Shown: positions 15,655 through 61,414 of the stretch, piece by piece
Position numbering within the stretch: the first letter of the stretch is position 1
Layout: each line of letters starts with the position of its first letter
DNA from: Escherichia coli
GTDB taxonomy: Bacteria > Pseudomonadota > Gammaproteobacteria > Enterobacterales > Enterobacteriaceae
Direction: 5' to 3' (one strand)
NCBI RefSeq assembly: GCF_003334785.1
Contig: NZ_QOWV01000012.1
DNA: 64,000 nucleotides
The notes under the pieces: generated by a model
Seen by the model: the letters and a program-made list of their open reading frames with translations, nothing else
Databases searched by the model: none
Told to the model about the DNA's origin: nothing
Translations under genes and position numbers: made by a program

Positions 15655-16968
15655 TCAGGATTTTTTACGCGAGGCTTTTTTACCTCCGCTGGCTGCGCGT
15701 TCAGCTTTGATTTTTTCCAGCAACGCGGCGGCGCTGTTTTCTCCGCTGATTAATTCCGGGTTTTCGGCCCGCCACTGGGCGGTGAGTTCACCACGGAACG
15801 CTTTTGCCAGGATGGATTGCGTCAGGTTGTTAACGCGGGCTAAGGCGTTGTTGACCTGTTTTTCTATGGTGTCTGCGTAGGCGAAGAGCTGCTCGACGCG
15901 GCGAACGATTTCGTGTTGTTCGGGGAGTGGAGGAACAGTTATTGGGTATGCAATTAATTTCTGTGCATTAATATTTGATTGACTGACCCCATCAGATTTT
16001 ACTGAGTAGCAATATTGCCTCCCCAAAATGCTATTTAAATGGTAGTTAAGATAGTCAGGGTTTAAATCAGGTAAACATTGAACCCTAATCAAATAACCTG
16101 CATAAATAGCTGGTTGCTCTGATTTATATATGGCTGTTTTCCCGACAAGTTCAGGACTATTTGTACGATTGAATAATACATCATTGTACTCAAGTTTATA
16201 CTTTTCAATTTCTATGGTATCTGAAGTATAGACTAGATCCGTCCAGTCCAATTTTCCGCCCTGAAGATTGCCCATTCTTAATACAGGAATGAGTCCTTCT
16301 TTATTAGACTTAGATGACGTTCCATAACTTGGTTTTTTTATAAATTCCCCAAGTTTGCCTTCTATCCACCCAGACAGGCTCGAATTATCTCTCCAGTCTT
16401 CAGTTAGTTTTCCACTTACCGCGGCACCCAGCACCGCCTGACGAAAACGTTTCAGGATTTGTGGGATTTGCTCAAGACGTGCTTTGGTGCTCTCTACCTG
16501 CGCCAGCAGCGTATCGAGTTTTTCAGCGATGATTTTTTGTTCTGAAATTGGAGGAAGTTGTATTTCCCAAGCCTCCATTCCAGCTTTGGTAATATGTGGC
16601 ATTGCCACGCCGTGAGCCGATGCTTTAAGTGCCTCTGTAATATTCAATAATGCATAATAAGCAAATTGCTTATTAAGTGCAGGGGATGTTTCAATCTTCC
16701 AAATATGGTAGTGATAAATTAGTTTATGATCCCACTTCGACCAATATGGACCAAATGTTGCTGACCAAGCATATAGGAGATCATTTTTATAGCAATATTT
16801 ATCTTCCTGTAGCTCTAAGTTGGAATAAAACCATTTATTCCCTCCATTCAAATTTTGAATTCTGAGAATAGGAACACCTTCTGTGAGCATTTCTTCTTTC
16901 TTATATGCTCTGCCATTGATGAGGGTCAAAACATCACCCAACTGGCATATTTGCCAATTTTTACTCAT
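15655..16968 (-). CDS. hsdS: Type I restriction-modification specificity subunit HsdS (type IA / EcoKI family frame, non-EcoKI target-recognition domains)
   Basis: 437-aa ORF; central (LPPISEQKIIAEKLDTLLAQVESTKARLEQIPQILKRFRQAVL) and C-terminal (EQHEIVRRVEQLFAYADTIEKQVNNALARVNNLTQSILAKAFRGELTAQWRAENP) conserved regions match the EcoKI family; the two variable domains differ; ATGA overlap with hsdM. Confidence 0.9.
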   Translation of the reverse strand: MSKNWQICQLGDVLTLINGRAYKKEEMLTEGVPILRIQNLNGGNKWFYSNLELQEDKYCYKNDLLYAWSATFGPYWSKWDHKLIYHYHIWKIETSPALNKQFAYYALLNITEALKASAHGVAMPHITKAGMEAWEIQLPPISEQKIIAEKLDTLLAQVESTKARLEQIPQILKRFRQAVLGAAVSGKLTEDWRDNSSLSGWIEGKLGEFIKKPSYGTSSKSNKEGLIPVLRMGNLQGGKLDWTDLVYTSDTIEIEKYKLEYNDVLFNRTNSPELVGKTAIYKSEQPAIYAGYLIRVQCLPDLNPDYLNYHLNSILGRQYCYSVKSDGVSQSNINAQKLIAYPITVPPLPEQHEIVRRVEQLFAYADTIEKQVNNALARVNNLTQSILAKAFRGELTAQWRAENPELISGENSAAALLEKIKAERAASGGKKASRKKS

Positions 16969-18554
16969 TCCTTCACCCCACCAAACGCTTCTTCCAGCAA
17001 CTGACGCTGTGCATCCGCCTCATCGCTCGCCCCCAGTTCACGCATCAGCGCATCCAGTTCACCCAGCGCCTGTACCAGTTCGCCCATCGCTTCTGCCGCT
17101 AATACATCCGGCTCCGGCAGGTTGTCGGCGTCAATGCTGTCTTTATCTTTCAGCCAGGAGATATCCAGCGAATCGGATTTCGCGGAGCGGATCCACTCGC
17201 GGCTGAACTTGCGCCAGCGGCTGGTAGCCAGATGCTGATCGGTATTTTTGTTCTCTTCGCTGTCGGCAACTTCCGTCTCTTCGGCGTTAAAACTCCATTC
17301 CCCTTCAGTACGCGGGCTTAAGCCGTGGGGATCTTCGCCATACACGCGCTCAAACGGCTGCAAATGCTCGTCGGTAAACGGCGTGCGTTTACCAAAGCTC
17401 GGCATATTGGTCCGCAGGTCGTACACCCACACGTCGTCGGTGCAGTTCTTATCCTGATGCGGGTTCGCCACTGTGCCTTTGGTAAAGAACAGCACGTTGG
17501 TCTTCACGCCCTGCGCGTAAAAAATACCGGTCGGCAGACGCAGAATGGTGTGCAGATGACACTTATCCATCAGGTCACGACGGATGTCGGTGCCTTTGCC
17601 GCCTTCAAACAACACGTTATCTGGCACCACCACCGCCGCACGACCGCCGGGATGCAGCGTTTCGATAATATGCTGCATAAAGCACAGCTGTTTGTTGCTG
17701 GTCGGGTGAACAAAGGTGCGGGTAATGTTGGTGCCTGCGGCGCTGCCAAACGGCGGGTTAGTGGCGACAATATGCGCCTTCGGCAGGTTTTCACCGTCGC
17801 TGCCCAGGGTGTTGCCCAGACGGATTGCGCCGCCGTGGTCGAGGTTGCCTTCAATATCGTGCAGCAGGCAGTTCATCAGCGCCAGACGACGGGTGCCGGG
17901 CACCAGTTCGAGGCCGATAAACGCGCGGTGGATCTGGAAATCCTGTGTGTCGCCATCAAGGTCGTCCAGATCGTTAGTCTGCGACTTAACGTAGCGGTCG
18001 GCTTCAATCAAAAAGCCCGCCGTACCCGCTGCCGGGTCCTGCACCACTTCACGCGGCTGCGGTTTCAGCAGATGAATAATGGTTTTAATCAGCGGACGCG
18101 GGGTGAAGTACTGGCCCGCGCCAGACTTGGTTTCGTTCGCGTTCTTCTGCAACAGCCCTTCGTACATATCGCCGAAGTCATCGCGCGACTTACCGTGCGC
18201 ACCGTTGTACCAGTCCAGTGAATCCATATTGCTGACCAGTTCGGTCAACTGTTTTGGCTGGGTAATGGTGGTGTTGACGTTCTGGAACACCGCCTGCACC
18301 AGCTTTTGATTGTCGGCGCCCAGATGTACCAGCAGGTTACGGTAGAACTGCAACTGCTCCTGACCGATACGGGATTTCAGGTCGTCCCAGCGGTAGCCTT
18401 CCGGCAGGTATTCCGCTTCCTGTCTGGTTTCTTTACACATTTTCAAAAACAGCAGCGAGGCGAGTTCATTGACGTAGTTTTGATAGGAAACGCCGCCATC
18501 GCGCAGGTTGTCGCACAGCTTCCACAGCTTGGCGACCAGATCGTTATTGTTCAT
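16965..18554 (-). CDS. hsdM: Type I R-M DNA methyltransferase subunit HsdM (EcoKI-like, N6-adenine)
   Basis: 529 aa, MNNNDLVAKLWKLCDNLRDGGVSYQNYVNELASLLFLKMCKET..., NPPF catalytic motif present; near-identical to EcoKI HsdM as remembered. Confidence 0.95.
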   Translation of the reverse strand: MNNNDLVAKLWKLCDNLRDGGVSYQNYVNELASLLFLKMCKETRQEAEYLPEGYRWDDLKSRIGQEQLQFYRNLLVHLGADNQKLVQAVFQNVNTTITQPKQLTELVSNMDSLDWYNGAHGKSRDDFGDMYEGLLQKNANETKSGAGQYFTPRPLIKTIIHLLKPQPREVVQDPAAGTAGFLIEADRYVKSQTNDLDDLDGDTQDFQIHRAFIGLELVPGTRRLALMNCLLHDIEGNLDHGGAIRLGNTLGSDGENLPKAHIVATNPPFGSAAGTNITRTFVHPTSNKQLCFMQHIIETLHPGGRAAVVVPDNVLFEGGKGTDIRRDLMDKCHLHTILRLPTGIFYAQGVKTNVLFFTKGTVANPHQDKNCTDDVWVYDLRTNMPSFGKRTPFTDEHLQPFERVYGEDPHGLSPRTEGEWSFNAEETEVADSEENKNTDQHLATSRWRKFSREWIRSAKSDSLDISWLKDKDSIDADNLPEPDVLAAEAMGELVQALGELDALMRELGASDEADAQRQLLEEAFGGVKE

Positions 18555-27177: not shown

Positions 27178-27690
27178 TTAAATCGCAGCTTCCATTTCCA
27201 GCATCACCGGATGGAAACGGCGTTTAAAGTAGATAAGTCCGTGACCTTCTGCACTGAGGATGATGTTTTTAATCTCCACCAGATACACCAGATGTGTGCC
27301 AATTGCCTGCACATCGCGGATCTCACCTTCAAGACTGGCCAGCGAACCTTTTAGCACCGGCTGCGCCAGCGGACCTTTTTGCCAGCATGAGAGGCTAAAA
27401 CGCTCTTCCATCGCCATGCCTGTCATGCCCGCGAAGTGGCGTGCCATCAGTTCCTGCTCATGGTTGAGGACGTTGACGCACAACTTGCCGTTGCCCTGAA
27501 AAACCGGGTTCATCGCACTGTTGGCGTTAATGCACACCATCAGCGACGGTGGTGTATCCGTGACCGAGCAGACAGCCGTTGCCGTAATCCCGCATTGTCC
27601 GGTGTCGCCCTCGGTGGTGATAATATTTACCGCTGCCGACAGGCTGGCCATCGCGTCACGAAAGCGCAGGCGTTGTTCATCTAATTGCAT
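27178..27690 (-). CDS. hpaC: 4-hydroxyphenylacetate 3-monooxygenase reductase component (flavin:NADH oxidoreductase)
   Basis: 170 aa, flavin-reductase-like; directly downstream of hpaB. Confidence 0.9.
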   Translation of the reverse strand: MQLDEQRLRFRDAMASLSAAVNIITTEGDTGQCGITATAVCSVTDTPPSLMVCINANSAMNPVFQGNGKLCVNVLNHEQELMARHFAGMTGMAMEERFSLSCWQKGPLAQPVLKGSLASLEGEIRDVQAIGTHLVYLVEIKNIILSAEGHGLIYFKRRFHPVMLEMEAAI

Positions 27691-27707
27691 CTTAACCTCC
27701 TGCTGCG

Positions 27708-29270
27708 TTATTTCAGCAGCTTATCCAGCATGTTGATATCGTCGTTGTTGTGCAGGTGCGGCACAGTCCAGCCGTTCTGGTCGTATTCCGACAGGCAGCG
27801 ATCAACCATCGCCATCATCTTGTCCATATTGCCGGAGCTTTGTGCCTGGCGCAGACACTGCAGGCGAATCTCATCCTGGCTACCGGAGTAGTTGATTTCA
27901 TACAGTTCGTGGCGACCACCAAACTCGCTGCCAATGGCGTCCCACATCAGTTTGAGGATCTTGATGCGCTGGACGTGATCCATACCATTCGAACCGCGCA
28001 CATACTTCGCCAGATACTGGTCGATCTGCGGATTGTTCAGGTCACGGGCACTGGAAGGGAGGTAGATCAGGCCACTGGTAACGTTGCGTTCGATAATGTT
28101 TTTGATCTTCGCGTAGGCCATTGGTGCCAGTACGCGATAGGTTTGCAGTGCGGCATGATCCGGTAAATAAGCCCCGTTGACCCACGGCGTCGCTTCAGAA
28201 CACATCGAGTCACTCAATGCCCAGAAGGTGTTGCGCCACGCCACCACTTCACCGAGATCGGCCTGCACACCACGGAACTCCAGGGTGCCGGTACATTCGA
28301 GTGATTTTTTCAGCAGTGCCGTAATGAAGTCGAGTTTCACTGCCAGGCGCACACAGGCTTGCAGCGGATACATACGGGCAAAACCGCCTTCCATCGTCCA
28401 GCGACGGCAGCGATCAAAATCGCGGTAGATCAGCACGTTTTCCCATGGGATCAGCACGTTATCCATCACCAGAATCGCATCATTCTCATCGAAGCGGCTG
28501 GAGAGCGGGTAGTCATACGGTGAGCCGGTAGCACCCGCGACCATCTCATAAGAGGCGCGGGAGATTAATTTCACGCCATCAGCATCCATTGGCGCAACGA
28601 ACATCAGCGCGAAGTCCGGGTTTTCGCCCATTACTTGTGCCGAGCCGAAGCCAACCATGTTGTAGTGAGTCAGCGCCGAGTTGGTGGCAACCACTTTCGC
28701 ACCGCTAACGATAATCCCGGCGTCAGTCTCTTTTTCCAGCTTGATGTAAACGTCTTTCACTTTATCGGTCGGCAAATGACGATCGATCGGTGGGTTAACA
28801 ATCGCGTGGTTAAAGTAGAGGCCAGTTTCCTGAATACGGGTATACCAGTTACGGGCGTTCTGCTCGAACTGACCGTAAAAGCCCGGATTCGCGCCCAGTG
28901 CGCAACCGAAAGCAGCTTTGTAGTCTGGGGTACGGCCCATCCAGCCATAGCTCAGGCGTGACCACTCAGCGATGGCGTCGCGTTGCTGGCGCAGGTCGTC
29001 GGCACTTTTCGCCACGCGGAAGAATTTATGGGTATAGCCGCCGCTGCCGGTGTCGGTGTTCCAACACAGAGAGTCCTGCATCTCCGGTTTGTGCAGCGCG
29101 TCGTACAGTTGGGCAACAGACGCTGCCGCATTACGAAATGCCGGATGAGTAGTGACGTCTTTCACTCGCTCGCCATAGATATAGATCTCGCGACCATCCT
29201 GCAGGCTTTTCAGATACTCTTCCCCGGTGAACGGACGTTGGGTACTGGCGCGGAAATCTTCTGGTTTCAT
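27708..29270 (-). CDS. hpaB: 4-hydroxyphenylacetate 3-monooxygenase oxygenase component
   Basis: 520 aa, MKPEDFRASTQRPFTGEEYLKSLQDGREIYIYGERVKDVTTHPAFRNAAASV..., two-component flavin-dependent monooxygenase. Confidence 0.9.
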   Translation of the reverse strand: MKPEDFRASTQRPFTGEEYLKSLQDGREIYIYGERVKDVTTHPAFRNAAASVAQLYDALHKPEMQDSLCWNTDTGSGGYTHKFFRVAKSADDLRQQRDAIAEWSRLSYGWMGRTPDYKAAFGCALGANPGFYGQFEQNARNWYTRIQETGLYFNHAIVNPPIDRHLPTDKVKDVYIKLEKETDAGIIVSGAKVVATNSALTHYNMVGFGSAQVMGENPDFALMFVAPMDADGVKLISRASYEMVAGATGSPYDYPLSSRFDENDAILVMDNVLIPWENVLIYRDFDRCRRWTMEGGFARMYPLQACVRLAVKLDFITALLKKSLECTGTLEFRGVQADLGEVVAWRNTFWALSDSMCSEATPWVNGAYLPDHAALQTYRVLAPMAYAKIKNIIERNVTSGLIYLPSSARDLNNPQIDQYLAKYVRGSNGMDHVQRIKILKLMWDAIGSEFGGRHELYEINYSGSQDEIRLQCLRQAQSSGNMDKMMAMVDRCLSEYDQNGWTVPHLHNNDDINMLDKLLK

Positions 29271-29520
29271 GTCGACCTCTACAGTATTAATCGGAATACG
29301 ATTGTTAATTTTGTGTGTTGTTTTTGTTATTCAATTGAAGCTTGCAGGGGCGATTACGGGAAGAGACTTTTGGGACAATGGCTGGTACTTTTCAGGTCGG
29401 GTACGGTTTTGTGATCGAGGTCGCTTTTAGCGATTTTTGACGTTACTAAATCCCCTTGCTCCAGGCGGAGAAAGGGGAATAGCAGGTGGTGCCTGGTTTC
29501 CCGTTAAGGCTAAGGGATTT

Positions 29521-30411
29521 TCACGTCACAGGTACTTTTTTGGCACGATAAGCACTGGGCGAGCAACCGACTAAGCGATAAAAAAAGCGCGCAAAATAAG
29601 CCGGATCCTTAAAACCGAGTTGCCAGGCAATATTGTTCACGGCGTTATCAGAAAACAGCAGCAGCCGCTTGGCTTCTCGCAGCTGCCTGTCGAAAATCAA
29701 CCGTTTTGGCGGACGGTTGGCAAAGCGACGGCAGATGTCCGTGAGTCGTGATTCGGTGATATGCAGTTCGTTAGCGTAATCCGGTACTGTCCAGTGCTGA
29801 TGAAAATGGCTTTCAATCAGCATATGAAAACGCTGGAACAGTTTTAATTCTCCGCGCATCCCGCTGGCGGCATGGTCGTCGAGTTTTGCGTTACGCAGCA
29901 GTAGGGTGAACACTGCCTGTGCCAGGAGCGTCAGGGTGTGTTCCCGTCCAGGCAGTTGTTCCACCGATTCCCGCTCTATCAGTTGCCAATAGTGTTCCAG
30001 CGCCGCCAGTTCGTCGGGTTTATCTGCCAGTGACAGGCAAATCCCCGGCAGGCCGAAGGTTTCCCGAGTGCCCGGATACAGAACTTCCAGCAGGGGCCAG
30101 ATCAGATCTTCCCGTACCGTCAACACATGACCGTCGGCGTCAGACTCCGTAATAAACGCATGAGGTACTGACGGCGGCGTCAGGACAAACAGGGGCGCTT
30201 CCACCGAGTAGCGATGATCGTCAAGCTGTAGCTCAATCTGTCCGCTATTGAGGAAATGCATCTGAAAGTACTGTTCGTGGCGATGTGGCAGCATATGGCG
30301 GCCAAAAAATGCCGCCATGCGGGCGAACGACTGATAATGCACATCGTCCGTACCCAGGCTTTCATCGTACTCTTTGCTGATATCAATATTGGCAATCTGA
30401 CGGTCACGCAT
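29521..30411 (-). CDS. hpaA: AraC/XylS-family activator of hpaBC
   Basis: 296 aa with C-terminal AraC-type HTH; upstream of hpaBC. Confidence 0.85.
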   Translation of the reverse strand: MRDRQIANIDISKEYDESLGTDDVHYQSFARMAAFFGRHMLPHRHEQYFQMHFLNSGQIELQLDDHRYSVEAPLFVLTPPSVPHAFITESDADGHVLTVREDLIWPLLEVLYPGTRETFGLPGICLSLADKPDELAALEHYWQLIERESVEQLPGREHTLTLLAQAVFTLLLRNAKLDDHAASGMRGELKLFQRFHMLIESHFHQHWTVPDYANELHITESRLTDICRRFANRPPKRLIFDRQLREAKRLLLFSDNAVNNIAWQLGFKDPAYFARFFYRLVGCSPSAYRAKKVPVT

Positions 30412-30420
30412 CGTCGTTCC

Positions 30421-31797
30421 TTACGGGGTCGCTCGCGGACGGGAGGACTGCATTGGAATCGCCCAGATAATCCCCGCACCAATCACCAGCAGCGCGGCAA
30501 CAAACCACAATCCACTGTTAAAGCTGCCGGTCAGATCTTTCAACCAGCCGATCATAAACGGACTTAATGCTGAACCAATGTTGCCAGTGGCGTTGATCAC
30601 CGCAATACCGATCGCTCGTGCCCGCAGGCTGATGGACTGATCCGGTGTTGTCCAGAAAATCGCCATTGCGCTGAATGATCCTGTCGAAGCCATAATGATC
30701 CCCAGCATCTGGATCATGTTGTGATCAGTTGCCGAAGCCAGTAACCAACCAGCGGCAGCGAACAAATAAGGAAGGGCGGTGTGATGCCTTCGTTCCTGGC
30801 GGTGATCTGAGTGACGGCTCCAGTAAATCATCCCGAGAATGGTACAAATCTGCGGTACGGCGGCCAGCAGGCCGATGGTGATATTACTGCTGCCCTGATT
30901 AAAGCTTTGCAGGATCTGCGGTGTCCAGATGCTGATCGCACTAAGTGTGTTGGTCAGGCAGAAATACGCCAGGGTATACATCATCACCACCGGAGTGAAG
31001 ATCTCCCGCCACATGCTGCGTTGTTGCATGGCGTGGTGGCTGATGGCTCCCTCTGGCTGAACCAGCGTCAGACGATCGTTATCCATCATCTCTTGCAGGC
31101 ATTTTTTGTCTTCTTTCGTCAGCCACTTAGCTTTGTCCGGTGAGTCATCAAGCCAGAACCACACCATGATGCCGAGTAATACCGACGGGAAGCCTTCCAG
31201 CAAAAACAGCCACTGCCAGCCTTTTAATGCCATTACGCCATCCAGCGACAAAATGTAGCCGGAAACGATCGATCCCAACGCTGTCGTTACCGGCATTGCC
31301 ACCATAAACAAGGCGTTGGCACGGGCGCGGAAATAGGCCGGAAACCAGAAGGTTAAATACAGCAGAATGCCAGGCAGAAAGCCGGCTTCGGTAATGCCAA
31401 CCAGTATACGCAGTACGTACAAGCTGGTGGGGCCAGTGGCAAACATGGTGGCAGTAGAGGCGATGCCCCAAAGCACCATGATGGTGGCGATCCAGCGCCG
31501 CGCACCGACAATACTCAGCATAATGTTGCTGGGAATGCCGAAGATGACATAAGCGGCGTAGAACAGGGTGGTGGCGAGGCCAAACATGGTGGCGCTCAGA
31601 CCGAGGTCGCGTCCCATCGTGAGTCCGGCAAAGCCGATGTTGATGCGATCAAGGAACGAGAAGATAAACAGCACGAACAGAAAGACGATCAGGCGGCGAA
31701 ACAGCTTCTTAATAACCGCCTGTTGTCCGGCAGTCAGCGCTTTATGCTGATTCGCCGGATCGATACTCTCCGGTATGGCAGGTGAGGTGTCGCTCAT
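30421..31797 (-). CDS. hpaX: 4-hydroxyphenylacetate MFS permease
   Basis: ORF 30421-31857; ATG at 31797 gives 458 aa starting MSDTSPAIPESIDP; 12-TM MFS pattern. Confidence 0.85.
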   Translation of the reverse strand: MSDTSPAIPESIDPANQHKALTAGQQAVIKKLFRRLIVFLFVLFIFSFLDRINIGFAGLTMGRDLGLSATMFGLATTLFYAAYVIFGIPSNIMLSIVGARRWIATIMVLWGIASTATMFATGPTSLYVLRILVGITEAGFLPGILLYLTFWFPAYFRARANALFMVAMPVTTALGSIVSGYILSLDGVMALKGWQWLFLLEGFPSVLLGIMVWFWLDDSPDKAKWLTKEDKKCLQEMMDNDRLTLVQPEGAISHHAMQQRSMWREIFTPVVMMYTLAYFCLTNTLSAISIWTPQILQSFNQGSSNITIGLLAAVPQICTILGMIYWSRHSDHRQERRHHTALPYLFAAAGWLLASATDHNMIQMLGIIMASTGSFSAMAIFWTTPDQSISLRARAIGIAVINATGNIGSALSPFMIGWLKDLTGSFNSGLWFVAALLVIGAGIIWAIPMQSSRPRATP

Positions 31798-31857
31798 TTT
31801 TCTTCCTCTAATGGGATTTTTGTAGGGTACGACAAGGTTTATGGCGGATGCGCACAA

Positions 31858-31970
<113 letters not shown>

Positions 31971-31971
31971 A

Positions 31972-32760
31972 TTAATACACGTCGGGCTTAATCGCTGTAG
32001 CCTGCGCACCAAACCGTGCTGCCAGCGCTTCGGCGGCGCGGGCGAGCAGGGTGGTGTCAACGCCGACGGCGACAAACAGCGCGCCCAGTTCCAGATAGCG
32101 TTTTGCCAGTTGCTCATTGGCGATCAGGATCCCCGGCGCTTTGCCCGCTTCGCGGATCTGCACGATCGCCTGCTCAATCGCGGCCTGTACTTCCGGGTGC
32201 TGAGGATTACCGGCATAACCCATATCGGCGCTCAGATCCGCCGGGCCGATAAACACGCCGTCGACCCCTTCCACGTCCAGAATCTGCGGTAAGTTCTTCA
32301 TTGCCTCACGCGTTTCGATCTGCACCAGCACGCACATTTGATCGTTGGCTTTTTGCAGGTAATCAGGAATACGATTCCAGCGCGAGGCTCGGGCCAGCGC
32401 ACTGCCCACACCGCGAATACCGGCGGGGGGATAACGGGTGGCGCGTACCGCTTCACGGGCTTCGTCAGCGTTTTGAACCATCGGCACCAGTAAGGTTTGT
32501 GTGCCGACATCCAGCAGTTGTTTGATTTGCACCGGATCGTTCCACGACGGACGTACCACCGGCTGGCTGGGGTAGGGCGCAATCGCCTGTAGCTGGGTGA
32601 GCACGGTTTGCACGTTATTCGGCGCGTGCTCACCGTCGATCAATAACCAGTCGAATCCTGCTCCGGCCAGTAACTCTGCGCTGTAGCTGCTACTTAGCCC
32701 CAGCCATAATCCGATCTGCGGGCGGCCTGCTTTCAGCGCCGCTTTAAAACTGTTTTCCAT
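31972..32760 (-). CDS. hpaI: 4-hydroxy-2-oxoheptane-1,7-dioate (HHED) aldolase
   Basis: ORF 31972-32901; ATG at 32760 gives 262 aa starting [26 protein letters not shown] (HpcH/HpaI aldolase family). Confidence 0.85.
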
Positions 32761-32770
32761 CGTTCTCTCC

Positions 32771-33574
32771 TTAAACAAAGCGGCAGCTAATGGAGCCCAT
32801 GTTGCCGTAATCGACGTGGAAGGTATCGCCCTTACGCGCCGGAACCGGGCGGGTGAACGAACCGCCGAGAATGATTTGCCCGGCTTCCAGTTGTACGTCA
32901 TACGGTGCGAGTTTGTTCGCCAGCCAGGCCACGCCGTTTGCCGGATGATTTAGCACACCAGCGGCGACGCCAGTTTCTTCAATCACGCCATTGCGATACA
33001 TCAGGGCGGAGATCCAACGCAGATCCAGTTCGTCTGGTTTGATCGGACGACCGCCGAGGATCACTCCGGCGTTGGCGGCGTTATCAGAAATGGTGTCGAA
33101 CACTTTGCGCGGGCGCTGGGTTTCCGGATCGATGTTGTGGCAGCGGGCGTCGATCAGCTCCAGCGCCGGGATCACGTAGTCCGTGGCGTTGTAGACGTCG
33201 AACAGCGTGCAGTTTGGCCCACGCAGCGGTTTTGCCAGCACAAAAGCCAGCTCCACTTCAATGCGCGGCACGATAAAGCGATCGGTCGGGATATCGCTGC
33301 CATCGTGGAAGAACATGTCGTCCAGCAATGCACCGTAATCTGGCTCGCTGATTTGTGAGCTGGCCTGCATCGCTTTCGAGGTCAGGCCGATTTTGTGGCC
33401 TTTCAGCGTGCGGCCTTCGGCGATTTTCAGTCGGACCCATTCGCGCTGTACGGCGTAGGCGTCTTCAATGGTGATCTCCGGGTAATCCAGCGAGATCGCG
33501 CGGATCTGTTCACGCTGTTTTTCTGCCTGATCCAGACGCTGGGCGATCAGGGTGTGGGTGTGTTTATCGAACAT
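32771..33574 (-). CDS. hpaH: 2-oxo-hept-4-ene-1,7-dioate hydratase
   Basis: ORF 32771-33592; ATG at 33574 gives 267 aa starting [26 protein letters not shown]. Confidence 0.85.
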
Positions 33575-33641
33575 AGCGATATCCTGTGGCATTGCCGGAT
33601 GCGGCTGCGCCTTATCATCCAGCCTGGAAGCTGGTGCAAAT

Positions 33642-34022
33642 TTATTTAAACAACGCGTGTACGTTGTTCTGTTTGAAATTCAACGTCGGGTGCAGCTCTG
33701 CAATCTCAAATGAAAGCGCCAGGTAACGGCTCTCCATCAGTGAGGCGAAGTGCGTTTTAATCAGATCAAACAGCATTTCGCCTACTTCCTGACGGCTTTC
33801 CAGACTGCGCCCGCTGCCGATTTTTAGCGTCATATGCACAAAGGCGTAATCGTGCTTGCCATCAGCCATTTGCCAGGTATCGATCCAGTGTGCCCGGCTA
33901 CGTATTCCCCCAAGCGGAAAAATCCCCGTCGCCGCCAGTGCGGTGTTAACACTGGCAAACAGCTCAGGTAAGCGGGCTTCTTGACGAATATTTTCAGTAC
34001 ATTCCACGATAAAGTGCGGCAT
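33642..34022 (-). CDS. hpaF: 5-carboxymethyl-2-hydroxymuconate isomerase
   Basis: 126 aa, [46 protein letters not shown]. Confidence 0.85.
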
Positions 34023-34031
34023 GGTTTTTCC

Positions 34032-34883
34032 TTACGCGGGAAGCGGGAAAACAGCGTTAACCTGACCAGTGCCAGAGCTTGGGAACAGCTCGGTAATAAA
34101 CTCCACCTTGCCGTCGTATTTATCCCAGCCGAGCATCCCCAGCAGCATCACCGTGTCGTGCATATTGCCTTCGCCGTAGCAGTAGTCGGCGTACTCCGGC
34201 AGCATATTGCAGAACTCTTTGAACTGGCCTTCGCGCCACAGCTTCACCACGCGCTCGTCCATCTGGCGGTCGAACTCGCGGGTGTAGCTGTTCATCCCTT
34301 CTTCTGCACGCTGATCGTCAATAAAGCGGTGCGATAACGAACCGCTGGCAAGGACCGCCACGGTGCCGTCGTACTGTTCGATCGCTTTCAGAATCGCTTC
34401 GCCCAGCTTGCGGCTGTCGGCAAAATCATGAACGGTACAGAATGCGGAGATGGAGACCACTTTGAAGTGCTTGTCTTCATTCATGTAGCGCATCGGCACC
34501 AGCGTGCCGTATTCCAGTTTCAGGCTGGGAATGTTGTGCGTTTTTGCCCGCACGCCGAGCTTTAAGGCTTCATCGGCAATTAGCTGCCCCAACTCCGGGT
34601 TGCCCTCGTAGTTGTAGGTCATGTCACGAATAAAATGCGGCAGCTCGTTACTGGTGTAGACGCCTTCAAAATGGTCTGCACAGTTGATGTGATAAGCACT
34701 GTTGACCAGCCAGTGGGTATCGAAAACGATAATGGTATCGACGCCCATTTCCCGGCAACGCTTGCTGATCTCTTTATGCCCGTCGATCGCACCCTGGCGG
34801 CAACCGTGGTTTTTCCCAGGCAGCTCAGAGAGATACATCGACGGTACGTGCGTGATCTTGGCGGCTAACGCTAACTTACCCAT
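34032..34883 (-). CDS. hpaD: 3,4-dihydroxyphenylacetate (homoprotocatechuate) 2,3-dioxygenase
   Basis: 283 aa extradiol dioxygenase, MGKLALAAKITHVPSMYLSELPGKNHGCRQGAIDGHKEI. Confidence 0.9.
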   Translation of the reverse strand: MGKLALAAKITHVPSMYLSELPGKNHGCRQGAIDGHKEISKRCREMGVDTIIVFDTHWLVNSAYHINCADHFEGVYTSNELPHFIRDMTYNYEGNPELGQLIADEALKLGVRAKTHNIPSLKLEYGTLVPMRYMNEDKHFKVVSISAFCTVHDFADSRKLGEAILKAIEQYDGTVAVLASGSLSHRFIDDQRAEEGMNSYTREFDRQMDERVVKLWREGQFKEFCNMLPEYADYCYGEGNMHDTVMLLGMLGWDKYDGKVEFITELFPSSGTGQVNAVFPLPA

Positions 34884-34884
34884 A

Positions 34885-36351
34885 TCAGACTCCCCATTTC
34901 GGAATTGGATGGTCGCCCATGGAAATGCAGACGTTCTTCATTTCCGCGAACACTTCGAAGCTGTACTCACCGCCTTCACGCCCGGTGCCGGAGGCTTTTA
35001 CGCCGCCAAATGGCTGGCGCAGGTCACGCACGTTCTGGGTGTTGACGAACACCATGCCAGCTTCAATGCCACGCGCCAGGCGTAACACTTTGCTGACATC
35101 CTGTGTCCAGATGTACGACGCGAGGCCGTACTCCACGTCGTTTGCCAGACGTAAGCCTTCGGCTTCGTCTTTAAACGGCAGCAGGCAGGCGACCGGCCCG
35201 AAAATCTCTTCCTGGGCAACGCGCATACGGTTATCTACGTCCGCCAGCACCGTTGGGCGCAGGAAGTTGCCGCCTTTCAGGTGTGCAGGCAGGTCAGACG
35301 GTTTATCCGGGCCGCCCGCCAGCAGGGTTGCGCCTTCTTCAATGCCGAGACGGATATAGCCGGAGACTTTATCCCAGTGTTGCTGGCTGATAAGCGCCCC
35401 AACCTGGGTATTCGGATCGTTCGGATCGCCCACGCGCAGACGGTTGGCGCGTTCGGCAAAGCGTTTAACGAATTCCGGGTAGATGCTTTGCTGAATAAAG
35501 ATGCGCGAACCGGCGGTGCAGCGCTCGCCGTTGATCGAGAAGATGGTGAACAGGGCGGCGTCCAGCGCGCGTTCAATATCGGCATCTTCAAAAATCAGCA
35601 CCGGCGATTTACCGCCCAGTTCCATGGAGTATTTTTTCAGCCCGGCGTTTTTCATGATGTTGCGCCCGGTGGCCGTACCGCCGGTGAACGACACGGCACG
35701 TACGTCATGATGACGAACCAGCGCATCGCCTGCGGTTGCGCCGTAGCCCTGTACCACGTTCAGCACGCCTGCCGGAATACCGGCTTCCAGCGCCAGCTCA
35801 CCCAGGCGGTCAGCGGTCAGCGGGGAGAGTTCCGACATTTTCAGTACCGCGGTATTGCCCAGCGCCAGACACGGCGCGACCTTCCATGTGGCGGTCATAA
35901 ACGGTACGTTCCACGGCGATACCAGCGCACAAACGCCCACCGGCTGCACCAGCGTGTAGTTGAGCATCTTGTCGTCAACCGGATAGGTCTTGCCGTTCAT
36001 CTGCTGGCAGACTTCCGCGAAAAATTCAAAGTTGTGGGAAGCGCGTGGGATCAACACATTTTTGGTCTGATGGATCGGCAGGCCGGTGTCCGCGGTTTCC
36101 ATCGCGGCGATCTCTGGCACGTTCTGGTCGATCAGATCGCCCAGACGGCGCATCAGGCGCGCACGCTCTTTCATCGGCAGATTGGCCCATTTCGGGAACG
36201 CCTCTTTCGCTGCCGCTACCGCCTGATTGATCTCCGCTTCACCGCCAGAGGCCACATCCGCCAGCACTTCACCCGTTGCCGGATTGGTGGTCTGAAAGTA
36301 GTCGTTACCTGCAACATTTTTGCCGTTGATCCAATGATTTACTTTTTTCAT
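34885..36351 (-). CDS. hpaE: 5-carboxymethyl-2-hydroxymuconate semialdehyde dehydrogenase
   Basis: 488-aa NAD-dependent aldehyde dehydrogenase, MKKVNHWINGKNVAGNDYFQTTNPATGEVLADVASGG. Confidence 0.9.
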   Translation of the reverse strand: MKKVNHWINGKNVAGNDYFQTTNPATGEVLADVASGGEAEINQAVAAAKEAFPKWANLPMKERARLMRRLGDLIDQNVPEIAAMETADTGLPIHQTKNVLIPRASHNFEFFAEVCQQMNGKTYPVDDKMLNYTLVQPVGVCALVSPWNVPFMTATWKVAPCLALGNTAVLKMSELSPLTADRLGELALEAGIPAGVLNVVQGYGATAGDALVRHHDVRAVSFTGGTATGRNIMKNAGLKKYSMELGGKSPVLIFEDADIERALDAALFTIFSINGERCTAGSRIFIQQSIYPEFVKRFAERANRLRVGDPNDPNTQVGALISQQHWDKVSGYIRLGIEEGATLLAGGPDKPSDLPAHLKGGNFLRPTVLADVDNRMRVAQEEIFGPVACLLPFKDEAEGLRLANDVEYGLASYIWTQDVSKVLRLARGIEAGMVFVNTQNVRDLRQPFGGVKASGTGREGGEYSFEVFAEMKNVCISMGDHPIPKWGV

Positions 36352-37637
36352 TTCGCTGTTTCCTCACTCACAATTCGGTTCACCAGGCAGCCCACGCCTT
36401 CTACTTCCACCACTACTTCATCGCCAGGCACCACGTCAGATAAGCCTTTTGGTGTGCCGGTGGCGATCATGTCGCCCGGATTCAGGGTCATAAATTCGCT
36501 TAAGTAGGCGATCAGGAAGGGCACGCTGAAGATCAGATCGGCGGTGGTGCCTTGCTGGCGTAACTCGCCGTTGACGAAGGTGCGAAGGGTCAGATTATGC
36601 GGGTCCGGGATCGCCTCTTTCGGCACGATGGTTGAAAGCATCGGCGTCAGTCCGTCGCGGCTTTTTACCCGCAGGTTAGGGCGGTAGTAGTTTTCCAGAT
36701 AGTCGCGAATGGCGTAGTCGTTACACACGGTGTAGCCCGCGACATAATCCATGGCATCGGCTTCGCTGACGTTACGCGCCTGTTTGCCAATAACTACCAC
36801 CAGCTCCGCTTCATAGTGCATGTATTCAATATTGTTTGGACGCACGGAGGTCTGGTTATCGCCAGTGAGGGTATTTGGCGCTTTCAGGAACACCAGCGGT
36901 TCTTCCGGTGGCTTAAATTCCAGTTCGCTGGCGTGGTCGGCGTAGTTCAGGCCGAGGGCAAACAGCGTGCCGTGCGGGTGTGGCTGCGTTGGGAAGCTCT
37001 TGCGCGTGGTCACTTCACGTTCGTCCACTACCGGATTTTCCAGCGGCGGGAAACCTTCTGCGAGAACACGAACGCGATCGCCTGGCTGTATTTCCACGCG
37101 CGCCTGTGGCGTGCCGAGCAGAATGGCATCGCCTGGATTCAGTGTGGCAAATTCGCTCAGGGCGCTCAGCAACTGCGCGGCGTTACGTTGTAAATCGGCG
37201 GTATTCCAGTGATCGGCAGGACGCCCGTTGATCTCGGTATAGATGGTCAGATTATCGACATTGCTGAGAGCCACGGTTTCGCCAATGGGGCAGAATCCAT
37301 CACGACATTTTGCTTTGATTGCCGGGCGGTAAAAGCTCTCTTCCGGCAGGCTGACGTCGTTAGCCAGCGCATATCCGGCGATGTACTCTGCCGCATCTTC
37401 TTCACGTACTTTCGTCGCCGTTTTTCCCACAATCAGCGCAACAGTCGCACCGCTCAGTACCTTTTCACCCTGTGGAAAGGGAATCGGTTCACCGCAACCA
37501 ATCACCGTATTGCGCGGTTTAATAAACCAGACCGCAGTTTTAGGCGGGGCTTTGTAGGGGGATTGCTGGAACGCTTCCTGCCATGCATCAAGTTGGCTGC
37601 GATGGTTCAACGCTACGGCGAAGATAGTGCCTTTCAT
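36348..37637 (-). CDS. hpaG: Bifunctional 2-hydroxyhepta-2,4-diene-1,7-dioate isomerase / 5-carboxymethyl-2-oxo-hex-3-ene-1,7-dioate decarboxylase
   Basis: ORF 36348-37643; ATG at 37637 (GAGGAG Shine-Dalgarno upstream) gives 429 aa; duplicated FAH-family domains. Confidence 0.85.
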   Translation of the reverse strand: MKGTIFAVALNHRSQLDAWQEAFQQSPYKAPPKTAVWFIKPRNTVIGCGEPIPFPQGEKVLSGATVALIVGKTATKVREEDAAEYIAGYALANDVSLPEESFYRPAIKAKCRDGFCPIGETVALSNVDNLTIYTEINGRPADHWNTADLQRNAAQLLSALSEFATLNPGDAILLGTPQARVEIQPGDRVRVLAEGFPPLENPVVDEREVTTRKSFPTQPHPHGTLFALGLNYADHASELEFKPPEEPLVFLKAPNTLTGDNQTSVRPNNIEYMHYEAELVVVIGKQARNVSEADAMDYVAGYTVCNDYAIRDYLENYYRPNLRVKSRDGLTPMLSTIVPKEAIPDPHNLTLRTFVNGELRQQGTTADLIFSVPFLIAYLSEFMTLNPGDMIATGTPKGLSDVVPGDEVVVEVEGVGCLVNRIVSEETAK

Positions 37638-37662
37638 TACCACTCCTCGGATTCGATCATCT

Positions 37663-37686
37663 TAATCATTAATATGTTAATGATTA
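37663..37686. promoter_or_regulatory. Perfect 10-bp inverted repeat (TAATCATTAA-tatg-TTAATGATTA), candidate HpaR operator in the hpaG promoter
   Basis: Palindrome seen directly, 26-49 nt upstream of the hpaG start in the hpaG-hpaR divergent region; HpaR is known to repress this promoter through palindromic operators. Confidence 0.4.
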
Positions 37687-37908
37687 CTTTTATTCCCGAT
37701 TGCGTAGTTTGGCAAAAGTAAGTGATGTAAATGTGATCTAATTAACAAACTATTTACATTTAAAGATAATAAAATATTAAATATCATTAAGTTAATAAAA
37801 TATCATCAATTTTGATAAAATCAGGAATTGCAGGGACAGCGCAGTCCCGGTAACGTGACGATTAACTGTTTCTATATTAATAATTTTGAATTTTTCAGGG
37901 GAAAGATA

Positions 37909-38355
37909 ATGCACGACTCTCTAACCATTGCGTTGCTCCAGGCGCGAGAAGCGGCGATGAGTTATTTTCGCCCAATCGTTAAACGGCATAATTTGACTGA
38001 GCAACAGTGGCGCATCGTGCGTATTCTGGCGGAAAGCCCATCAATGGATTTTCACGATCTGGCGTATCGTGCCTGCATTTTGCGCCCAAGCCTGACCGGG
38101 ATCCTTACGCGGATGGAACGCGACGGTTTAGTGTTGCGATTAAAGCCGATCAATGATCAGCGGAAGCTCTATATCTCGCTGACCAAAGAGGGGCAGGCGC
38201 TGTATAACCGCGCTCAGACACAGATTGAAGAAGCCTATCGGCAGATTGAAGCTCAGTTTACTGCCGAGAAAATGCAACTGTTAACCCATCTGTTAGAGGA
38301 ATTTATTGCTCTGGGCAATTCCCGACAAGAAGACATCCCGGGCGATAATGAATAA
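37909..38355 (+). CDS. hpaR: MarR-family repressor of the hpa meta-cleavage operon
   Basis: ORF 37828-38355; ATG at 37909 gives 148 aa starting MHDSLTIALLQAREAAMSYFRPIVKRHNLTEQQWRIVRILAESPSMDFHDLA (MarR winged helix). Confidence 0.85.
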   Translation: MHDSLTIALLQAREAAMSYFRPIVKRHNLTEQQWRIVRILAESPSMDFHDLAYRACILRPSLTGILTRMERDGLVLRLKPINDQRKLYISLTKEGQALYNRAQTQIEEAYRQIEAQFTAEKMQLLTHLLEEFIALGNSRQEDIPGDNE

Positions 38356-38473: not shown

Positions 38474-40138
38474 ATGTTAAAACGTATCAAGATCGTGACC
38501 AGCTTACTGCTGGTTTTGGCCGTTTTTGGCCTTTTACAACTGACATCAGGCGGTCTGTTCTTTAATGCCTTAAAGAATGACAAAGAAAATTTCACTGTTT
38601 TACAAACCATTCGCCAGCAGCAATCCACGCTGAATGGCAGCTGGGTCGCGTTGTTGCAGACGCGTAACACCCTCAACCGCGCGGGTATCCGCTACATGAT
38701 GGATCAGAATAATATTGGTAGCGGTTCAACCGTTGCTGAGCTGATGCAGAGTGCCAGTATTTCGCTGAAACAGGCGGAAAAAAACTGGGCGGATTACGAA
38801 GCGTTGCCGCGTGACCCGCGTCAGAGCACCGCCGCAGCGGCAGAGATCAAACGTAATTACGATATTTATCACAATGCGCTGGCGGAGCTGATCCAACTGT
38901 TAGGTGCAGGCAAAATCAACGAGTTCTTTGATCAGCCGACTCAGGGATATCAGGACGGTTTCGAGAAGCAGTATGTGGCTTACATGGAACAAAACGATCG
39001 GCTCCATGATATCGCCGTCAGCGATAACAATGCCTCCTACAGCCAGGCGATGTGGATTCTGGTGGGCGTGATGATCGTCGTACTGGCGGTCATCTTCGCC
39101 GTCTGGTTCGGTATTAAAGCCTCGCTGGTAGCGCCAATGAATCGCCTGATTGACAGCATTCGTCATATTGCAGGCGGCGATCTGGTGAAACCGATTGAGG
39201 TGGATGGCTCTAATGAGATGGGGCAACTGGCAGAGAGTTTGCGCCATATGCAGGGAGAGCTGATGCGTACCGTCGGTGATGTGCGCAACGGGGCCAATGC
39301 CATCTATAGCGGTGCCAGCGAAATCGCTACCGGCAATAACGATCTCTCTTCGCGCACCGAGCAACAGGCTGCTTCGCTGGAAGAGACGGCAGCCAGCATG
39401 GAGCAACTGACCGCAACGGTGAAACAGAACGCCGAGAATGCGCGCCAGGCCAGCCACCTGGCGTTAAGTGCTTCTGAAACGGCGCAACGCGGCGGCAAAG
39501 TGGTAGATAACGTGGTGCAGACTATGCGTGATATCTCCACCAGTTCGCAGAAAATCGCCGATATTATCAGCGTAATTGACGGCATTGCCTTCCAGACCAA
39601 TATTCTGGCTTTGAACGCGGCGGTTGAAGCAGCGCGTGCGGGTGAGCAAGGACGTGGTTTTGCGGTGGTTGCGGGAGAAGTGCGTAATCTGGCCCAGCGT
39701 AGCGCCCAGGCGGCTCGTGAAATTAAAAGCCTGATTGAAGACTCGGTGGGGAAAGTGGATGTTGGCTCTACGCTGGTCGAAAGCGCCGGGGAAACAATGG
39801 CGGAGATTGTCAGTGCTGTGACCCGCGTGACGGACATTATGGGCGAAATTGCTTCTGCTTCTGATGAGCAGAGCCGTGGTATCGATCAGGTTGGCTTAGC
39901 GGTTGCTGAGATGGACCGGGTAACTCAACAGAACGCCGCGCTGGTGGAAGAATCTGCCGCCGCCGCCGCCGCGCTGGAAGAGCAGGCCAGTCGCCTGACC
40001 GAAGCAGTGGCAGTGTTCCGGATTCAGCAACAGCAGCAACAGCAGCGTGAAACATCGGCTGTGGTAAAAAACGTGACGCCAGCTACGCCGCGTAAAATGG
40101 CAGTGGCAGATAGCGGGGAGAACTGGGAAACGTTTTAA
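38474..40138 (+). CDS. tsr: Methyl-accepting chemotaxis protein I (serine chemoreceptor)
   Basis: 554 aa, [57 protein letters not shown] ... C-terminal NWETF pentapeptide. Confidence 0.95.
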
Positions 40139-40186: not shown

Positions 40187-41548
40187 TTAATCTTTACGCG
40201 GGTCGTTGATCGGCTGACGAACCAGGAAGATGTACGCCAGTGCTCCCGCTGCGGTGACGCAACCGCAGATGATTAGTGCCAGACGGAATGAGTGGGTGGT
40301 ATCAACAATAAAACCAGTAATGATCGGCGCAAAAGAGGCGCAGATGAAGCTGGCAAAGTTCTGGATACTGCCCACCGACGCCGTCATGCGAGAAGCAACT
40401 GCGACGTGGATCAAGCCCCAGCAGGATGTTCCGGCAAAGTGAATACAGAACAGTGCCATGCCAATCAGCAGAACCGCCGTCATGGATGTTGTCGCTTGCG
40501 GTACGACCAGCGTAAAGGCGGCAGAACAGAACATCCCGGCAATAATGCAGATCTTACGGCTTTTAATCGGAGCCATTCCCCCTTTGACCAGCCAGTCAGT
40601 AACGTAACCGTTGACCAGCATCCCGGCAGCCCCAAACAGGAAAGGGATAGCCGCCATCAACCCTGTGCTTTTTAAATCCAGGTTATAGGCTGTTTGCAGG
40701 TAACCAGGAAGCCAGGCCAGATACAGCCACGCAGTGTAGTTGATGCCACTGAATCCGAGCATCATTCCCCACATTGTGCGGTTACGGAACAGGCTGCGCC
40801 ATTCGGCAAAACTGAGCGGATCTCGGCGGGCATTGACGCTACCTGCATTGAGATAAGCTTGTTCAACGGCAGTCAGTTCTACGTGCTCGCGGTTGCGATA
40901 GAGCATATACCAGCCAATGGCGAGAAAAATCCCCAGCACACCAATGGTAATAAACATCCCACGCCAGCCCATCACCAGCATCATCGCCGCCAGAATCGGT
41001 GGGCTTACGGCAACGCCAATGGTAGAAGCTGCGTTGAAGAAGCCCATCGGGCGTCCGCGCTCTTTGATGTTGAACCAGTCGTTAATGACTTTTACGCCAC
41101 ATGGGTTCATCGGCGCTTCACCAATCCCCATACCGATACGCACCAACACGAACTGCGTAAAGCTGTGCACCATGCCAGACATGGCCTGGAACAGTGACCA
41201 GAAGAACATCCCCAGTCCCAGCATCAGGCGTGGGCCTTTACGATCCAATAGTGGGCCGCAAGGAAGTTGCGCAATCCCGTAAGCGAGTGAAAACACGGAG
41301 AGCAAAGCGCCGATTTCGGTGGCACTTAATCCCAATTCTTCACGAATCGTTAAATTTGCTACCGACAGCGAACTGCGGTCGAGATAATTGATTACCGCCG
41401 CAAAAAATAATAACAACATGGCGGTGGTTTGAATGCGTTTAATTCGGGTACTGCGTTGAACTAATCCATCTGGTGGCACGGGAATATCTGCCGACGAAGA
41501 TGGAGTAAATGAAGAACGCGGATCGAGGGTGATATTTTCTTTTTCCAC
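40187..41548 (-). CDS. yjjL: MFS transporter YjjL (L-galactonate transporter LgoT)
   Basis: 453-aa polytopic MFS protein; synteny with yjjM/yjjN. Confidence 0.85.
   Translation of the reverse strand: MEKENITLDPRSSFTPSSSADIPVPPDGLVQRSTRIKRIQTTAMLLLFFAAVINYLDRSSLSVANLTIREELGLSATEIGALLSVFSLAYGIAQLPCGPLLDRKGPRLMLGLGMFFWSLFQAMSGMVHSFTQFVLVRIGMGIGEAPMNPCGVKVINDWFNIKERGRPMGFFNAASTIGVAVSPPILAAMMLVMGWRGMFITIGVLGIFLAIGWYMLYRNREHVELTAVEQAYLNAGSVNARRDPLSFAEWRSLFRNRTMWGMMLGFSGINYTAWLYLAWLPGYLQTAYNLDLKSTGLMAAIPFLFGAAGMLVNGYVTDWLVKGGMAPIKSRKICIIAGMFCSAAFTLVVPQATTSMTAVLLIGMALFCIHFAGTSCWGLIHVAVASRMTASVGSIQNFASFICASFAPIITGFIVDTTHSFRLALIICGCVTAAGALAYIFLVRQPINDPRKD

Positions 41549-60902: not shown

Positions 60903-61414
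<512 letters not shown>

Follow-up and report, generated by a model that had tools for sequence, protein, structure and literature searches.

The glutamine tract of the Escherichia coli Tsr tether is a short in-frame 9-bp repeat that varies in length among strains

The serine chemoreceptor Tsr of Escherichia coli carries, where the tether to its C-terminal NWETF pentapeptide begins, a run of glutamines encoded by a 9-bp repeat, and among the complete genomes that could be assigned to an allele class strains differ by whole 9-bp units only. In the 64,000-nucleotide stretch of E. coli DNA analyzed here (the window), this run is seven residues long (Q7). We consider it likely that the tract is best explained as an in-frame VNTR of the slippage type whose alleles are near-neutral, with a small quantitative effect. 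A sequence-only reading of the same DNA had taken the run for a trinucleotide slippage polymorphism that could tune the reach of CheR and CheB, an interpretation that is partly supported by the results presented below. In the literature on the Tsr linker and on repeats, we found no description of a glutamine length polymorphism; mentions of "TSR" in papers on Salmonella MLVA were set aside as irrelevant, since they refer to a reagent and to PCR targets.

Identity and setting of tsr

The open reading frame containing the tract (Table 1) encodes a protein that aligns with K-12 Tsr over its full length at 99% identity; the sequence-only reading was right about both the gene, tsr, and the size of its product, 554 amino acids. 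Precomputed domain assignments for proteins identical or nearly identical to it comprise PF02203, PF00672, and PF00015 (TarH, HAMP, and MCP-signal, respectively), and on the grounds of both full-length similarity and domain content the protein is the orthologue of Tsr (serine chemoreceptor, methyl-accepting chemotaxis protein I). Its translation ends in GENWETF directly before the stop codon, with the pentapeptide present. Among 5,426 complete E. coli genomes in RefSeq, a tsr annotation is present in 5,383.

Synteny places the gene at the chromosomal position of K-12 tsr: on its right lie lgoT, lgoR, and lgoD in the same order as in K-12, and on its left the hpa cluster is inserted, with btsT beyond it. 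The hpa (4-hydroxyphenylacetate) cluster occupies positions 27178-38355 of the window. The left neighbor of tsr varies among strains, being btsT directly in K-12 and B2 strains, the hpa cluster in the window, B strains, ATCC 8739, and HS, and a hypothetical gene in O157 and EC6622; the right neighbor is either lgoT-lgoR-lgoD or an operon for a TRAP C4-dicarboxylate transporter. The lgoT reading frame is intact in the window (40187-41548, 453 aa), but in the complete genome of strain 118UI, which matches a 301-bp probe at 100%, the annotation makes lgoT a pseudogene interrupted by an internal stop (16308-17669 of its locus), so that the window does not derive from this very strain.

Two further repeats were noted in the window. 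Tandem Repeats Finder (TRF) reports 4.8 copies of a 101-bp unit at 60916-61403 (94% identity, score 878), inside which there is REP/BIME-like palindromic sequence (GCCGGATAAGGCGTT..., GCCTGATGCGACGCT), and a smaller, 52-bp REP-like pair lies within the hpa cluster at 31838-31952.

Table 1. Features of tsr in the window, with the evidence for each
Feature	Position	Strand	Evidence or remark
Coding sequence of tsr (serine chemoreceptor; 554 aa with the Q7 allele)	38474..40138	+	ORF and translation; 99% identity to K-12 Tsr
(GCC)5 GCG encoding A495-A500	39956..39973	+	TRF, period 3, 5.7 copies, 100% matches
Linker/tether at the C-terminus, from I517 to E549 (33 residues; K-12, 30 residues)	40022..40120	+	Boundary from the literature; coordinates computed from ORF start
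Glutamine tract Q518-Q524 (Q7)	40025..40045	+	Sequence, CAG CAA CAG CAG CAA CAG CAG
First copy of the unit, CAGCAACAG	40025-40033	+	Sequence
Second copy of the unit, CAGCAACAG	40034-40042	+	Sequence
Partial copy, CAG	40043-45	+	Sequence
NWETF pentapeptide, C-terminal	40121..40135	+	Translation; CheR/CheB docking per PMC7390727, PMC10561060
Stop codon of tsr	40136-40138	+	ORF

The glutamine tract is built of a 9-bp unit

The presence of a seven-glutamine tract in Tsr is confirmed, and the tract lies in frame within the plus-strand reading frame. Its repeat unit is 9 bp long (CAGCAACAG) and encodes three glutamines; TRF describes a perfect period-9 array of this unit, with 2.4 copies and 100% matches at 40025-40046. 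The repeat exceeds what would be expected by chance. Besides the TRF array, Q7 exceeds every other single-residue run in the open reading frames of at least 150 aa when all six frames of the window are read, only 2 of 5,000 codon shuffles of tsr produced a self-match of 22 nt or more with a period of 9, and the number of Q7 runs expected from the composition of Tsr is about 3-9 x 10^-6.

A simple trinucleotide (CAG)n microsatellite was considered as a description of the tract and rejected: scored with a period of 3 (CAG), the tract yields just 78% matches by TRF, probes for one-codon alleles found none, and the differences between alleles are all 9, 18, or 27 bp.

Four in-frame alleles circulate among complete genomes

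Tsr of K-12 MG1655 (b4355) has 551 residues and a run of four glutamines (Q4), encoded by CAG CAA CAG CAG in the context IQQQQRETS, and its alignment with the window shows a clean 9-bp gap, i.e., one unit fewer in K-12. The sequence-only reading had given K-12 a shorter protein with a shorter glutamine run, correctly on both counts, and the seven-glutamine tract that it named as evidence against itself is not what MG1655 carries.

We counted alleles among the 5,383 complete genomes carrying the region with short probes that are unable to seed on other alleles. Q7 was found in 4,051 genomes and Q4 in 1,208; an additional 75 partial matches to the Q7 probe represent longer alleles, namely 72 of Q10 and 3 of Q13. 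Long-flank queries for Q10 and Q13 gave confounded identity bands, BLAST having joined two pieces across the gap, and the counts for these two alleles were taken from the 90-95% identity band, in agreement with the partial matches. By this measure Q10 is present in about 72 genomes (at least 60 among the matches listed, including HS, LF82, NRG857C, and MP1), and Q13 in three (RM14723, A13, and Z1323HEC0355). About 49 genomes (0.9%) match neither short probe and fall outside the allele classes. Every allele read at the DNA level follows the form CAG+(CAACAGCAG)n without imperfections (n=1-4), and probes specific for alleles with one CAG more, one CAG fewer, or a single glutamine (Q1, zero units) found no match in the 5,426 genomes. 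A sequencing or assembly artefact was rejected as the source of the variation, every allele recurring in independent complete genomes from different laboratories.

Given 4,051 genomes with Q7 against 1,208 with Q4, the window carries the majority allele and K-12 the shortest, minority allele. Q7 is therefore no unusual expansion: it is the commonest form, at about 75% of complete genomes, a frequency that describes the database and not nature, as RefSeq complete genomes are enriched in clinical clones and K-12 derivatives. As for the trinucleotide slippage polymorphism that it envisaged, a real length polymorphism of the slippage kind exists, but the unit is 9 bp and the alleles found are Q4, Q7, Q10, and Q13. 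Because the frame never changes, the variation constitutes a length polymorphism rather than an on/off switch, and a phase-variable contingency locus was rejected on the same evidence: the unit is 9 bp, and all four alleles are in frame and keep the NWETF end.

In a full-length search with Tsr of a set of 5.8 billion proteins, every match listed was a variant from E. coli/Shigella, with an identity of 97% or more. Point variants in this set included QQQQQHQ and QQQQQQH, both of which keep the Q7 length, as well as an alanine run of five residues (A5). One QQQQQHQ protein occurs on 183 contigs. By breaking the second 9-bp unit, such point changes might stabilize copy number.

The alanine run affected in the A5 variant is a second short repeat of tsr. 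Situated 50 bp upstream of the glutamine tract, with methylation site E493 on one side and E502 on the other (K-12 numbering, PMC10561060), it has the alleles A6 (about 4,980 complete genomes), A5 (16), and A8 ((GCC)7 GCG; 4), the last of these on at least two different tsr backgrounds. Whereas the glutamine tract changes by 9 bp and lies in the tether, the alanine run is part of the methylation helix and varies by one or two codons, and because of that location alanine indels should shift the helix register near site 5.

A proposed slippage-type mechanism

From the structure of the repeat we infer a slippage mechanism in which copies of the 9-bp unit would be gained or lost whole, most likely by slipped-strand mispairing during replication; an equivalent short-homology recombination between 12-bp direct repeats would be the alternative route. 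A tract of two or more units contains overlapping direct repeats of 12 bp, shifted by 9 bp from one another, an ordinary substrate for slippage or for short-homology deletion and duplication, and each step would add or remove three glutamines with the reading frame kept. The CAA interruptions bar any pure CAG run of more than two codons, so that variation would proceed in 9-bp, and not 3-bp, steps. An allele with one unit (Q4) keeps only 3 bp of offset homology, and for this reason its re-expansion or its loss to Q1 should be rare; such rarity of leaving Q4 fits both the frequent occurrence of Q4 in separate lineages and the absence of Q1. We infer from this a one-way tendency to contract toward Q4.

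Expected effect on the tether

The residues of the tether are counted from I517 (PMC10561060), which is the last conserved residue (PMC4692393), and the tether leads to the pentapeptide motif as defined previously (PMC7390727). The glutamine tract follows I517 directly and NWETF lies 25 residues beyond the tract, which agrees with its placement by the sequence-only reading in the linker ahead of NWETF. The tract is thus part of the non-conserved stretch that runs from the last conserved residue of the helix to the pentapeptide, and the tether counted from I517 has 30 residues with Q4, 33 with Q7 (the window), 36 with Q10, and 39 with Q13. Tether residues past 517 are treated as non-conserved in Tsr, and the homologous segment of Tar, the receptor to which the experimental evidence on disorder pertains, is described as unstructured (PMC4692393, PMC10561060, PMC7390727). 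In pentapeptide-bearing receptors more generally, linkers measure 29-39 aa in one species, can reach 91 aa in others, and have a charge pattern only, without conserved sequence (bioRxiv 10.1101/2024.03.07.583918).

Working linkers of such varied length and sequence are the reason why we judge near-neutrality the most likely condition of the alleles, a judgment to which the properties of the tract also lead: it is uncharged, it is proximal to the receptor body, and it sits in a non-conserved, reportedly unstructured segment. Uncharged glutamines at the proximal end would leave the charge pattern of the linker undisturbed, and any effect of the alleles on the site of action of tethered CheR and CheB would be quantitative and small.

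The size of that effect can be predicted from Tar, in which receptors with tethers of 22, 29, 34, and 46 residues still signal, tether length measurably shifts adaptation kinetics, and the peak concentration of tethered CheR moves linearly with tether length, by 0.128 +/- 0.048 nm per residue, along methylation sites spaced 1.05 nm apart (PMC10561060). Applied to Tsr, the Tar slope predicts about 0.4 nm of additional CheR reach for each step of three glutamines and about 1.15 nm from Q4 to Q13, roughly one methylation-site spacing. Tuning of CheR/CheB reach by length, as the sequence-only reading proposed, is plausible in this light. A stronger version of the idea holds that tether length is under selection, with lineage-specific glutamine numbers setting the reach of CheR and CheB and the speed or precision of serine adaptation to suit each niche. 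The linear shift measured across the Tar tethers and the predicted distances speak for it, as does the fact that several alleles are kept in circulation by repeated independent changes. We nevertheless think adaptive tuning unlikely: the difference between the common alleles Q4 and Q7 is predicted to be one third of the site spacing, all alleles fall within the ordinary 29-39-residue range of linkers, a single allele stands at 75% across the major lineages sampled (O157, ST131, Nissle, and ATCC 8739), and the genomes listed show no evident link between allele and host or niche. That recurrent gain and loss of three glutamines acts as a length dial, retuning CheR/CheB reach and access to methylation sites so as to shift the speed or precision of serine adaptation, strikes us as a little less credible still; if true, it would mean that K-12, the reference for nearly all quantitative models of chemotaxis, has the extreme short setting rather than a typical one.

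Recurrent copy-number change and recombination

To follow copy number on its genetic background, 19 full-length tsr genes, chosen for allele diversity, were compared after removal of the tract. Over a locus of 5,045 bp, BEN2908 (Q4) and TUM10828 (Q7) are separated by 4 SNPs (5,041 shared positions), 2 of which lie in tsr, and their sole indel is the 9-bp unit. SCU116 (Q10) is 4-6 SNPs from both, and Q4, Q7, and Q10 are all found within one sub-clade spanning at most 6 SNPs. Similarly, RM14723 (Q13) and MP1 (Q10) are separated by 3 SNPs in tsr. Q10 itself occurs with a K-12-type C-terminus in HS and with an ATCC 8739-type C-terminus in EC6622. On a neighbor-joining tree of the 19 sequences, at least seven copy-number changes (8 single-unit steps) are required, a figure that is qualitative and gives no rate, because the sample was picked for allele diversity and recombination is active at the locus. 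In this qualitative sense, copy number changes faster than the surrounding sequence gains SNPs, and such recurrence is in keeping with slipped-strand mispairing.

To judge from the sequences compared, intragenic recombination clearly occurs at tsr, and it could mimic part of the recurrence. ATCC 8739, Nissle 1917, and EC958, which we take to belong to different phylogroups, have the same Tsr (WP_000919544.1) and the same LgoT (WP_000410144.1), their tsr genes differing by 0-2 SNPs, which suggests horizontal exchange of the region. The alleles might be few and ancient, their copy number rarely mutating and segments of tsr being imported between lineages by homologous recombination. The proteins shared by those three strains would be expected if this were so, and the position of tsr between variable gene blocks (hpa or not; lgoT or the TRAP operon) marks a recombination-prone region. 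We regard such shuffling as very unlikely to account for the allele distribution, however, since alleles one unit apart share all but four of the flanking positions in BEN2908 and TUM10828, three alleles lie within a single sub-clade, and 3 SNPs separate a Q10 from a Q13 background; to produce these pairs, recombination would have to act through tiny conversion tracts covering the repeat alone.

The glutamine run might instead extend the last methylation helix, its length moving the origin of the tether or altering receptor packing and signaling bias; the tract does abut that helix (...AVAVFRI-Q7), polyglutamine can propagate helicity from an upstream helix in eukaryotic proteins, and the helix assignment of an AlphaFold2 model of Tsr reaches residue 528. 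This reading is hardly credible, as the model (built on an alignment of 12 sequences, 98% identical) has a mean pLDDT of 45.9, with residues 508-554 all below 50, and is too poor for structural conclusions, and as the segment past residue 517 is the one described as non-conserved and, in Tar, unstructured (PMC4692393, PMC10561060, PMC7390727).

A slippage-type VNTR remains the reading that we prefer, and related species bear on its origin. In E. whittamii the tract is CAG CAG ACG (CAACAGCAG)2, encoding QQTQQQQQQ, that is, a degenerate first unit followed by two perfect units, and two other Escherichia species have QQ[A/T]QQRQHEALPVV, without the 9-bp repeat. From this distribution, the E. coli/E. 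whittamii lineage appears to be where the repeat arose. A search of species-representative genomes with a degenerate TEAVAVFRI pattern found three Escherichia loci and three unrelated MCPs only. In the sister Escherichia species the remainder of the linker also diverges, and it ends in DNWETF.

Significance and comparison with known systems

K-12 Tsr is among the best-quantified signaling proteins, and models of adaptation now incorporate tether length (PMC10561060). Most E. coli tethers are three residues longer than that of K-12, some are six or nine residues longer, and the difference arises repeatedly; parameters obtained with K-12 may, as a caution, not be typical of the species. The natural series of 30, 33, 36, and 39 residues provides a ready test set for the tethered-enzyme model in a native receptor. 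Because the expected effect is small, the practical importance of the polymorphism is modest unless experiments show otherwise.

The closest known system is the NWETF tether of E. coli Tsr and Tar itself, the same protein and the same segment, which is a non-conserved arm of roughly 30-35 residues from the last helix of the signaling domain to the pentapeptide at which CheR and CheB dock, and which was the subject of the linker studies of Bartelli & Hazelbauer 2011 and Li & Hazelbauer 2006, as these are cited in PMC7390727 and PMC10561060. The Tsr linker of the literature is the K-12 sequence (IQQQQRETS..., 30-34 residues), whereas the linker described here is naturally polymorphic in length (Q4, Q7, Q10, or Q13).

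In mode of variation, the tract resembles the in-frame coding VNTRs, or minisatellites, of bacteria, such as MLVA loci, in which perfect head-to-tail copies vary by whole units among strains. Like them, it changes repeatedly within one background, and its unit is a multiple of three, which keeps the protein in frame; it differs in that the array is very short (1-4 x 9 bp), so that it probably mutates slowly, and in that the tether containing it is mechanistically well understood, with predictable physical consequences of its length. We did not find the tsr glutamine repeat described as a typing locus in the literature.

Two more distant likenesses are instructive. (i) In the mixed CAG/CAA polyglutamine tracts of eukaryotes, CAA interruptions suppress single-codon slippage, and in tsr too the glutamine run consists of CAG interrupted by CAA; here, however, the interruptions create the 9-bp unit that would itself slip, the run is much shorter, there is no sign of aggregation or pathology, and the setting is bacterial. 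(ii) As in phase-variable contingency loci, mutation at a defined site in an environment-sensing gene is repeat-mediated, recurrent, and reversible, but in tsr there is no frameshift or on/off switching, copy number is low, and the output is graded in steps of three residues. The tsr tract, whose polymorphism is apparently unreported, is on these comparisons an ordinary short in-frame VNTR, of known kinds, in a well-studied tether.
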